Shown: one piece after another, positions 10,946 to 11,466 of the stretch
Layout of the letters: every line of letters begins with the position of its first letter
Numbering within the stretch: position 1 is the stretch's first letter
Assembly (NCBI RefSeq): GCF_003334305.1
Contig: NZ_QOWS01000038.1
From: Escherichia coli
Lineage (GTDB): Bacteria; Pseudomonadota; Gammaproteobacteria; Enterobacterales; Enterobacteriaceae
Length of the DNA: 23,984 nt
Reading direction: 5' to 3' (one strand)
Made by a program: the position numbers and the translations under genes
Notes under the pieces: model-generated
Database searches by the model: none
What the model was told of the DNA's origin: nothing
The model's input: only the letters and a program-made list of their open reading frames with translations

Positions 10946-11119
10946 TTAAAACAGTGAAAACAACAGCGCCACCGGGAAACTCATCGGCCATGTTGCCCCC
11001 ACCAGAAAGGCGCTTAAGAAACGGATGCGTTTCTTATCGTGAGAAAGAAACCAGGTGATAAGAAATGCGATTGCTGCCATAACCGCATAAAAAACAAGCA
11101 TGTGTTGATAGAGAGACAT
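10946..11119 (-). CDS. ortT: orphan membrane toxin OrtT (GhoT-like small membrane-damaging peptide)
   Basis: Supplied ORF 10946..11194; I place the start at ATG 11117-11119 (MSLYQHMLVFYAVMAAIAFLITWFLSHDKKRIRFLSAFLVGATWPMSFPVALLFSLF, 57 aa, two predicted TM helices). Confidence 0.75.
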   Translation of the reverse strand: MSLYQHMLVFYAVMAAIAFLITWFLSHDKKRIRFLSAFLVGATWPMSFPVALLFSLF

Positions 11120-11313
11120 GTACGGGCGTCCAGCCAGATGAATAAAACGCGCGCAAATATGCGTCATTTTTTGACGTGCATCAAGTTTTTTCACCAGTTT
11201 GAGAAAAAATCATCAAACAGCAACTTGCCCTTATTCATCTTCAGAATGAGTATTATTGCGGATTTTCTTAACCCGTACTATACACATAGGGGCAATGATA
11301 AAAGGTGGCAAAA

Positions 11314-11409
11314 ATGAATGTTTCCAGTAGAACTGTAGTACTGATAAATGTCTTTGCTGCTGTTGGTTTGTTTACTCTTATCTCTATGAGATTTGGCTGG
11401 TTTATTTGA
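11314..11409 (+). CDS. yncL: 31-aa small membrane protein
   Basis: Hand-found ORF below the track size cutoff: ATG at 11314 preceded by AAGGTGG Shine-Dalgarno at about 5 nt spacing; MNVSSRTVVLINVFAAVGLFTLISMRFGWFI with one predicted TM helix. Matches recalled K-12 small protein YncL. Confidence 0.65.
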   Translation: MNVSSRTVVLINVFAAVGLFTLISMRFGWFI

Positions 11410-11431
11410 TGTAGTGATTTTGCACGCAGCA

Positions 11432-11466
11432 CGTACTGTCAGAGAAATCAGTGCTCTGACAGTACG
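11432..11466. other. perfect 13-bp inverted repeat between convergent yncL and patD
   Basis: CGTACTGTCAGAG / aaatcagtg / CTCTGACAGTACG; no clear U-tract on either strand, so terminator function is uncertain. Confidence 0.4.

Follow-up and report, generated by a model that had tools for sequence, protein, structure and literature searches.

The stretch of the Escherichia coli chromosome that carries ortT, yncL and patD raises two questions. A perfect inverted repeat of 13 bp lies behind the small gene yncL, and it has to be asked whether this repeat terminates transcription, marks the end of a processed RNA or binds a protein. The neighbouring gene ortT encodes a membrane toxin, and here the question is whether an antitoxin is hidden close by. 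Both questions were addressed in a window of 23,984 nucleotides (the whole stretch of DNA that was analysed), for which an initial annotation had named ortT, a 31-codon yncL and the inverted repeat. Each of these elements is found in the sequence and in the list of open reading frames where it had been placed (Table 1).

The 1.2 kb around the locus found a match in 5,416 of 5,426 complete E. coli genomes at 95–100% identity. In comparison to MG1655 the window shows 2 mismatches in 1401 nt, and in comparison to strain H15 there are 9 mismatches over the whole window. The numbering of MG1655 runs opposite to that of the window, a position x of MG1655 being equal to window position 11469 + (1517039 - x). 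RefSeq annotates ortT, yncL, patD and ydcY at exactly the window positions. The earlier remark that yncL had been missed is therefore true of the cut-off used for open reading frames at that time, but does not point to an annotation gap.

Table 1. Position of genes, signals and RNA features in the ortT-yncL-patD region (window coordinates).
Feature	Position	Strand	Basis
ydcZ		+	RefSeq annotation
ydcY	10627-10860	-	RefSeq annotation
ortT (ydcX, b1445), 57-aa orphan membrane toxin, GhoT/OrtT family	10946-11119	-	ORF, RefSeq, Pfam
Putative ortT core promoter: -35 TTGATG (11184-11179), 17-nt spacer, -10 CATATT (11161-11156)	11156-11184	-	Conservation only
Putative yncL promoter: TTGCGG (11256-11261), 17-nt spacer, cTATACA (11278-11284)	11256-11284	+	Conservation; sigma-S-like, C at -13
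yncL Shine-Dalgarno AGGTGG, 5 nt 5' of ATG	11303-11308	+	Sequence; GGTGG nearly invariant across species
yncL (b4598), 31-aa single-TM stress-response membrane peptide	11314-11409	+	NCBIfam NF000537, RefSeq, codon-position pattern
13-bp perfect stem with 9-nt loop, 3'-terminal stem-loop of yncL mRNA	11432-11466	+	Folding, chance control, covariation
Dominant RNA 3' end of the yncL transcript	11469 (MG1655 1517039, minus strand)	+	Term-seq, PMC7815308
C-rich, G-poor tract after the hairpin, candidate rut site	11467-11506	+	Base counts; analogy with PMC6061677
Segment transcribed by read-through, opposite the 3' end of patD and reaching the Rho region listed at MG1655 1516753 (minus strand)	11470-11755	+	PMC7815308, supplement 2
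patD (ydcW), gamma-aminobutyraldehyde dehydrogenase, convergent with yncL	11506-12930	-	ORF, RefSeq

The 31-codon reading frame with a single transmembrane segment and a strong Shine-Dalgarno sequence is a genuine gene, as had been assumed, and is already published as such. Its product matches the NCBIfam model NF000537, the equivalog for 'stress response membrane protein YncL', with 72.5 bits at a cut-off of 35 (E = 1.8e-20). Among 25 sequences from 4 genera the variable columns are distributed over the codon positions as 9/6/27, an excess at the third position that marks a gene as translated. Both the Shine-Dalgarno sequence and the ATG have been kept across species. The gene is identical to the known YncL/STnc1110 (NF000537; PMC5437024, PMC12542507) with its single-TM product of 31 aa, its induction by sigma-S or stress and its short transcript. 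Expression of yncL is induced by stress and in stationary phase, and overproduction of the peptide depolarises the membrane and condenses the nucleoid (PMC12542507); tagging of the peptide is attributed to Hemm 2008 and 2010, as cited in that paper. The Salmonella orthologue STnc1110 was first listed as an sRNA of 195 nt that depends on sigma-S (PMC5437024), and a Salmonella yncL-lacZ fusion is expressed. The yncL mRNA is also a published partner of the sRNAs RprA and KilS.

The inverted repeat starts 22 nt beyond the yncL stop codon. Its arms CGTACTGTCAGAG and CTCTGACAGTACG (11432-11444 and 11454-11466) pair perfectly over 13 bp and enclose a loop of 9 nt. Folding yielded -21.6 kcal/mol for the plus strand and -22.5 kcal/mol for the minus strand, with z = -4.4 versus shuffles in either case. 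It is the sole perfect inverted repeat of at least 13 bp with a loop of 3–20 nt in the window, and 300 shuffles of the window that preserved its dinucleotides did not produce a single such repeat. The 10 nt following the stem read CAAGATCATC; a U-tract is absent, as the initial annotation had noticed, and a terminator scan of the window did not call the hairpin at 11432-11466. We also considered a dispersed repeat element and rejected it, the 116-nt hairpin region occurring once per genome (median 1).

Published mapping of RNA 3' ends covers the region around 11410-11470 and places a very strong end directly behind the stem. Adams et al. 2021 (PMC7815308, supplement 1) report a Term-seq 3' end at MG1655 position 1517039 on the minus strand with 75,265 reads in LB at OD 0.4 and 536,300 reads in LB at OD 2.0. 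The site is listed three times, the third entry presumably belonging to the M63 sheet. The coordinate convention of the list (50 nt upstream, the 3' end, 10 nt downstream) was checked on the aspU and aspV tRNA ends. Position 1517039 corresponds to 11469 of the window, which is the second A of the CAA after the stem and lies 3 nt past 11466. The limit for a 'primary' end was 50 nt in the original study; with 60 nt between it and the yncL stop codon this end exceeded the limit and was given no class other than 'antisense to patD'. The mature yncL RNA extends from about 11291 to 11469 (~179 nt), a size in agreement with the 195-nt transcript of Salmonella, and folding puts the hairpin at its very 3' end. 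When the alignment of this RNA was folded with RNAalifold, a long-range helix of 6 bp appeared between UGCUGC in the yncL coding region (~11356-11361) and GCAGCA/GCGGCG in the 3' UTR (11426-11431), corresponding to columns 67-72 and 144-149 of alignment A3. It displays one-sided (wobble) changes only and no double compensation, and we do not claim it as a structure.

A second data set of the same study concerns the factor Rho. Supplement 2 of PMC7815308 lists a Rho termination region at MG1655 1516753 on the minus strand (score 16.6, p = 5e-21), which is position 11755 of the window, about 286 nt further downstream of the 3' end on the same strand. Without bicyclomycin 220 reads were counted upstream and 9 downstream, with bicyclomycin 106 upstream and 72 downstream, which amounts to an increase in read-through past yncL of about 17-fold; since these counts were taken in windows of 800 nt, they indicate a Rho stop somewhere downstream of yncL at an imprecise position and do not give the fraction of polymerases passing the hairpin. 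The 40 nt that follow the stem are rich in C (11) and poor in G (3), and a motif GATCTTCyCAC following the hairpin is conserved in Escherichia and Citrobacter.

Taking these observations into account, we consider it likely that Rho terminates the yncL transcript downstream of the hairpin, and that the hairpin is a stem-loop which blocks exonucleases and so defines the 3' end. A promoter of the sigma-S type at ~11256-11284 would drive yncL, and the 13-bp stem-loop would form in its RNA. RNA polymerase would largely pass the hairpin because of the missing U-tract. Rho would then load on the C-rich, G-poor RNA just downstream, where the tract 11467-11506 is a candidate rut site, and transcription would stop within the antisense of patD. 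Finally, 3'-to-5' exonucleases would trim the RNA to the foot of the stem, so that the end at 11469 (stem plus CAA) would be precise and stable and would arise by trimming and not by direct termination. The product would be a short, very abundant yncL mRNA of ~180 nt, the STnc1110 of Salmonella, with the coding sequence for the membrane peptide of 31 aa. The proposal of an RNA-end or processing site in place of a simple terminator is hence supported by the absent U-tract, the end 3 nt past the stem and the Rho-dependent read-through.

Ends of this kind are known. Dar and Sorek 2018 (PMC6061677) described Rho-dependent transcripts that end precisely after stable stem-loops devoid of U-tracts. 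These stem-loops protect the RNA from PNPase and RNase II, and rut sites follow directly behind them. The yncL stem-loop resembles these in its position directly 5' of a precise steady-state end, in the lack of both a U-tract and an upstream A-tract, and in the prevalence of C over G downstream together with bicyclomycin-sensitive read-through. For the yncL site, trimming by PNPase or RNase II is suggested here by analogy. A difference is that related genera have a T-tract at the yncL site, and the yncL hairpin may therefore be a decayed intrinsic terminator.

That the polymerase stops at the hairpin itself is a reading which has to be weighed in this context. As a weak or non-canonical intrinsic terminator the hairpin would release the transcript without Rho, and 11469 would be the release site or lie near to it. 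Stem and loop are similar to those of intrinsic terminators in size and energy, the stem is stable, and the hairpin follows a short gene at a point where two genes converge. The homologous hairpin of Salmonella has an extra outer helix of 3 bp and is then followed by a T-tract, and at the same position Pluralibacter carries a canonical bidirectional terminator; the T-tracts behind both give them the look of ordinary terminators. The few downstream reads in the absence of bicyclomycin (9 versus 220) would also fit. However, the E. coli hairpin is neither followed by a U-tract nor called by the terminator scan, its 3' end is found at 3 nt and not at the typical distance of 7–9 nt after the stem, as seen at the neighbouring terminator 1555765, and transcription further downstream responds to bicyclomycin. 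With no U-tract, an end at 3 nt and an effect of bicyclomycin, trimming after Rho termination is favoured and direct intrinsic termination appears unlikely to us. Given the T-tract of Salmonella and the terminator of Pluralibacter, the hairpin of E. coli may nevertheless have kept some direct terminator activity.

The hairpin lies between two convergent genes, 40 nt past the stop codon of patD, and might act in both directions as a 3'-end element common to the two genes, so that the patD mRNA would be ended or stabilised by it as well. Such a role would be compatible with the Rho and trimming explanation. The minus-strand fold is equally good, and the symmetric counts of G-U wobbles, 14 on the plus and 15 on the minus strand, do not discriminate between the strands. 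In addition, no other hairpin is present between patD and yncL in E. coli. On the other hand, the three Term-seq conditions contain no 3' end of the patD strand at the hairpin, and the element follows yncL across insertions. A stem-loop is located 3' of yncL in every Escherichia, Citrobacter and Salmonella locus examined. It remains beside yncL in about a fifth of the E. coli genomes, in which an island of 1.35 kb separates patD, and likewise in the C. freundii group, in which the separating insert measures 2.3 kb. Where patD occurs without yncL, in Enterobacter-type genomes, it is followed by a GC-rich hairpin unrelated to this one. The hairpin thus belongs to yncL rather than patD, and its assignment to the plus strand is based on the Term-seq end and on this linkage. 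A shared function in the expression of patD seems doubtful to us.

The junction between the hairpin and the patD stop codon (~11487-11495) showed further variation. No contiguous match across it was found in 1,172 of 5,417 complete E. coli records, again about a fifth. The 1.35-kb island inserted here in other E. coli (positions 4888-6245 of comparison locus L002) is low in GC (0.28–0.37) and carries a gene for a CatB-related O-acetyltransferase; imperfect direct repeats of ~20 bp around TTAAT(G/A)TTTA border it on both sides. In the C. freundii group the insert of 2.3 kb at this junction encodes an MFS transporter and an AraC-like regulator. The junction appears to be an insertion hot-spot.

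That Escherichia and Citrobacter have lost the U-tract could itself be functional. The very abundant yncL RNA, driven by sigma-S, would then pass its hairpin into patD and be a Rho-limited antisense RNA, an arrangement known as an excludon, that lowers patD in stationary phase; alternatively, the conserved 3' UTR of yncL with its GCAGCA block, stem-loop and C-rich tail would turn the transcript into a dual-function RNA that titrates RprA or KilS. We regard this suggestion as speculative and give it a small chance. If the antisense version were true, yncL RNA would reduce the expression of the putrescine-catabolic patD in stationary phase.

A related possibility is that read-through RNA of yncL and patD mRNA form a duplex that is cleaved by RNase III, whereby the 3' end would be set and the expression of both genes coupled inversely. 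The pair patD-yncL is indeed contained in a list of convergent overlapping pairs (PMC12288877), and according to PMC3082872 the abundance of yncL mRNA is altered in RNase E or RNase III mutants. Moreover, folding of the E. coli read-through RNA predicts an outer helix of 10 bp around the hairpin, by which the stem could be extended. This outer helix does not keep its register in other genera, RNA ending at 11469 lacks most of it, and we rejected it as a part of the structure. The 13-bp stem is short for RNase III, and an end at the foot of the hairpin is the expected outcome of exonuclease stalling, which makes cleavage by RNase III very unlikely.

Whether the repeat acts as RNA or as DNA was assessed by covariation. 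We used an alignment of 23 sequences with a helix of 15 pairs; alignments with the 3' arm slid by 1–3 columns and 500 shuffles served as controls. In the true register 84% of the cells were paired, compared to 35–52% after sliding. Both sides were changed in 7 pairs versus a shuffle mean of 3.9 (7 was reached by 5 of 500 shuffles), and the covariation score of 0.224 compared to 0.112 +/- 0.014 in the shuffles was reached by none of the 500. Alignment pair 36-59, for example, is G-C in 17 sequences, U-A in 6 and broken in none. At the stem foot the variants CGTAC, CGCAC, CATAC and CACAC occur within Escherichia, and the 3' arm matches each time but one, the exception being an A·C mismatch in Escherichia sp. 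E1V33. RNAalifold recovered a core of 10 bp from the hairpin alignment. The central CAGAGAG/CTCTCTG is highly conserved, and the length of the loop varies between 3 and 9 nt among species. Co-varying arms around a variable loop are the behaviour of an RNA stem and not of an operator with fixed spacing; the protein-binding site that had been offered as an alternative is therefore not borne out. A DNA operator for a dimeric regulator, as a perfect intergenic palindrome of 13 bp with a conserved core might suggest, is extremely improbable in view of the arm spacing of 3–9 nt, the compensatory changes in the arms, the position at the 3' ends of two convergent genes and not at a promoter, and the strong RNA 3' end at its foot.

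The second question concerned ortT. The Pfam family PF10753 (Toxin_GhoT_OrtT) matched OrtT in full length with E = 9.2e-28, residues 4-57 covering positions 1-55 of the 55-position model, and the same domain is carried by all OrtT homologues found. The hydropathy profile of the 57-aa protein displays two hydrophobic segments that flank the basic loop HDKKRIR, as is typical of the two-helix peptides of this family. Its placement in the GhoT family was thereby confirmed, although both this and the orphan status are already published. The gene of the window is the one characterised by Islam et al. 2015 (PMC4344625), who named OrtT an orphan toxin and reported its induction during the stringent response. 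In their experiments expression of OrtT led to membrane damage and growth arrest. Neither YdcY nor GhoS nor the flanking spacers in cis relieved the toxicity, and a genomic library of about 3-fold coverage yielded no antitoxin. Unlike ghoST, ortT is thus devoid of an adjacent GhoS-like RNase antitoxin, and GhoS itself is not protective against OrtT.

We compared the neighbourhood of ortT in 80 species-level enterobacterial loci that were fetched with OrtT, and yncL was sought on them by tblastn. Alongside ortT, yncL is present in 25 of the 80 loci (Escherichia, Citrobacter, Salmonella, Intestinirhabdus and Pluralibacter) and ydcY in 5, all from Escherichia. No non-overlapping neighbouring ORF is common to more than 30 of the 80 loci, and an adjacent, co-conserved gene for a GhoS-like RNase antitoxin, as expected for a type V pair like GhoST, was not found in them. 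Searching the whole window against Rfam returned nothing at gathering score; with the threshold relaxed to E <= 10, two hits at chance level appeared around the locus, one to STnc320 (16 bits) and one to a snoRNA, and were dismissed.

Two conserved blocks only were detected in the spacer between ortT and yncL, namely the putative core promoter of ortT (11156-11184) on the minus strand and that of yncL on the plus strand. The -35 and -10 hexamers of ortT are invariant in Escherichia, Citrobacter, Salmonella, Intestinirhabdus and Pluralibacter and also present in Enterobacter loci. In the yncL promoter ACTATA and TTGC are invariant in 14 species, and a SELEX peak of the RpoS holoenzyme with strong binding has been reported in the yncL/ydcX spacer (PMC5493296). 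Transcripts from the two promoters run apart from each other without overlap, and a third conserved promoter is absent from the spacer. An antisense RNA promoter between 11120 and 11313 was looked for and not found, nor does the spacer contain a conserved promoter or terminator for a type I antitoxin RNA that overlaps the ortT mRNA. The terminator scan picked up a plus-strand hairpin (11147-11164) with TTTTTT behind it. We rejected the idea that an RNA directed against the ortT leader ends there, since neither a matching Term-seq 3' end nor an upstream plus-strand promoter was found; the published Term-seq list contains no plus-strand 3' end near 11170. The sequence of this hairpin is the conserved -10 and transcription start region of ortT read backwards.

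Two other observations were made in the ortT promoter region. At 11171-11184 the near-palindrome TTGATGCACGTCAA, for which Enterobacter reads TTGATCTGTATCAA, overlaps the conserved -35 hexamer and could be a putative operator for a repressor keeping the orphan toxin silent. Furthermore, published Term-seq recorded a weak 3' end at 11151 on the minus strand, with 848 reads, an intrinsic terminator score of 3.18 and no dependence on Rho. This end lies 5 nt past the conserved -10 hexamer and 32 nt before the ATG of ortT, at or above the predicted start site.

A hidden antitoxin of OrtT could still be sought in YncL, in an antisense RNA from the spacer or in an ORF overlapping ortT. yncL is divergent from ortT and was outside the published UTR construct (PMC4344625), and ORFs overlapping ortT in other frames recur in 53–74 of the 80 loci. 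These ORFs, however, share the DNA of ortT and have their start codons in or above its conserved -10 box. We therefore regard them as by-products of ortT conservation and discarded them as antitoxin or leader. With YncL and YdcY each confined to a minority of the loci, YncL itself depolarising the membrane, the library screen and the UTR construct negative, and non-overlapping transcripts in the spacer, a linked antitoxin of any of these kinds is hardly credible. The comparison of 80 species independently supports the published view that OrtT has no linked partner, and in our reading ortT is a true orphan toxin. It would be transcribed divergently from its own conserved promoter, with control at the level of expression and not by a linked antitoxin.

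Elsewhere in the window the toxin gene hicA is frameshifted (19046-19240, minus strand), with an ORF of 44 aa from 19200 and the C-terminal residues in another frame; RefSeq marks hicA of strain H15 likewise as 'frameshifted'. The antitoxin gene hicB is intact (18584-19021, minus strand), and the same window therefore holds an orphan antitoxin. In the divergent ydcO-sutR spacer we noticed an inverted repeat with arms of 20 nt that are 85% complementary (22346-22399), which could be a putative regulator binding site.

In summary, the initial annotation was accurate in what it observed and largely right in its interpretation, which is partly supported: three of its four points hold, two of these being already published, and almost all of it repeats published knowledge. 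The literature or RefSeq already contains both genes, OrtT as an orphan toxin and the 3' end of the RNA. The hairpin itself is ordinary, a well-conserved stem-loop of a known kind at the 3' terminus of the yncL mRNA. Beyond a tidy annotation the importance of the finding is slight. For YncL/STnc1110 the sole addition is the comparative description of its 3' stem-loop, and it is a useful one, as a strong Term-seq peak hitherto listed as 'antisense to patD' can now be assigned to this conserved element of yncL.
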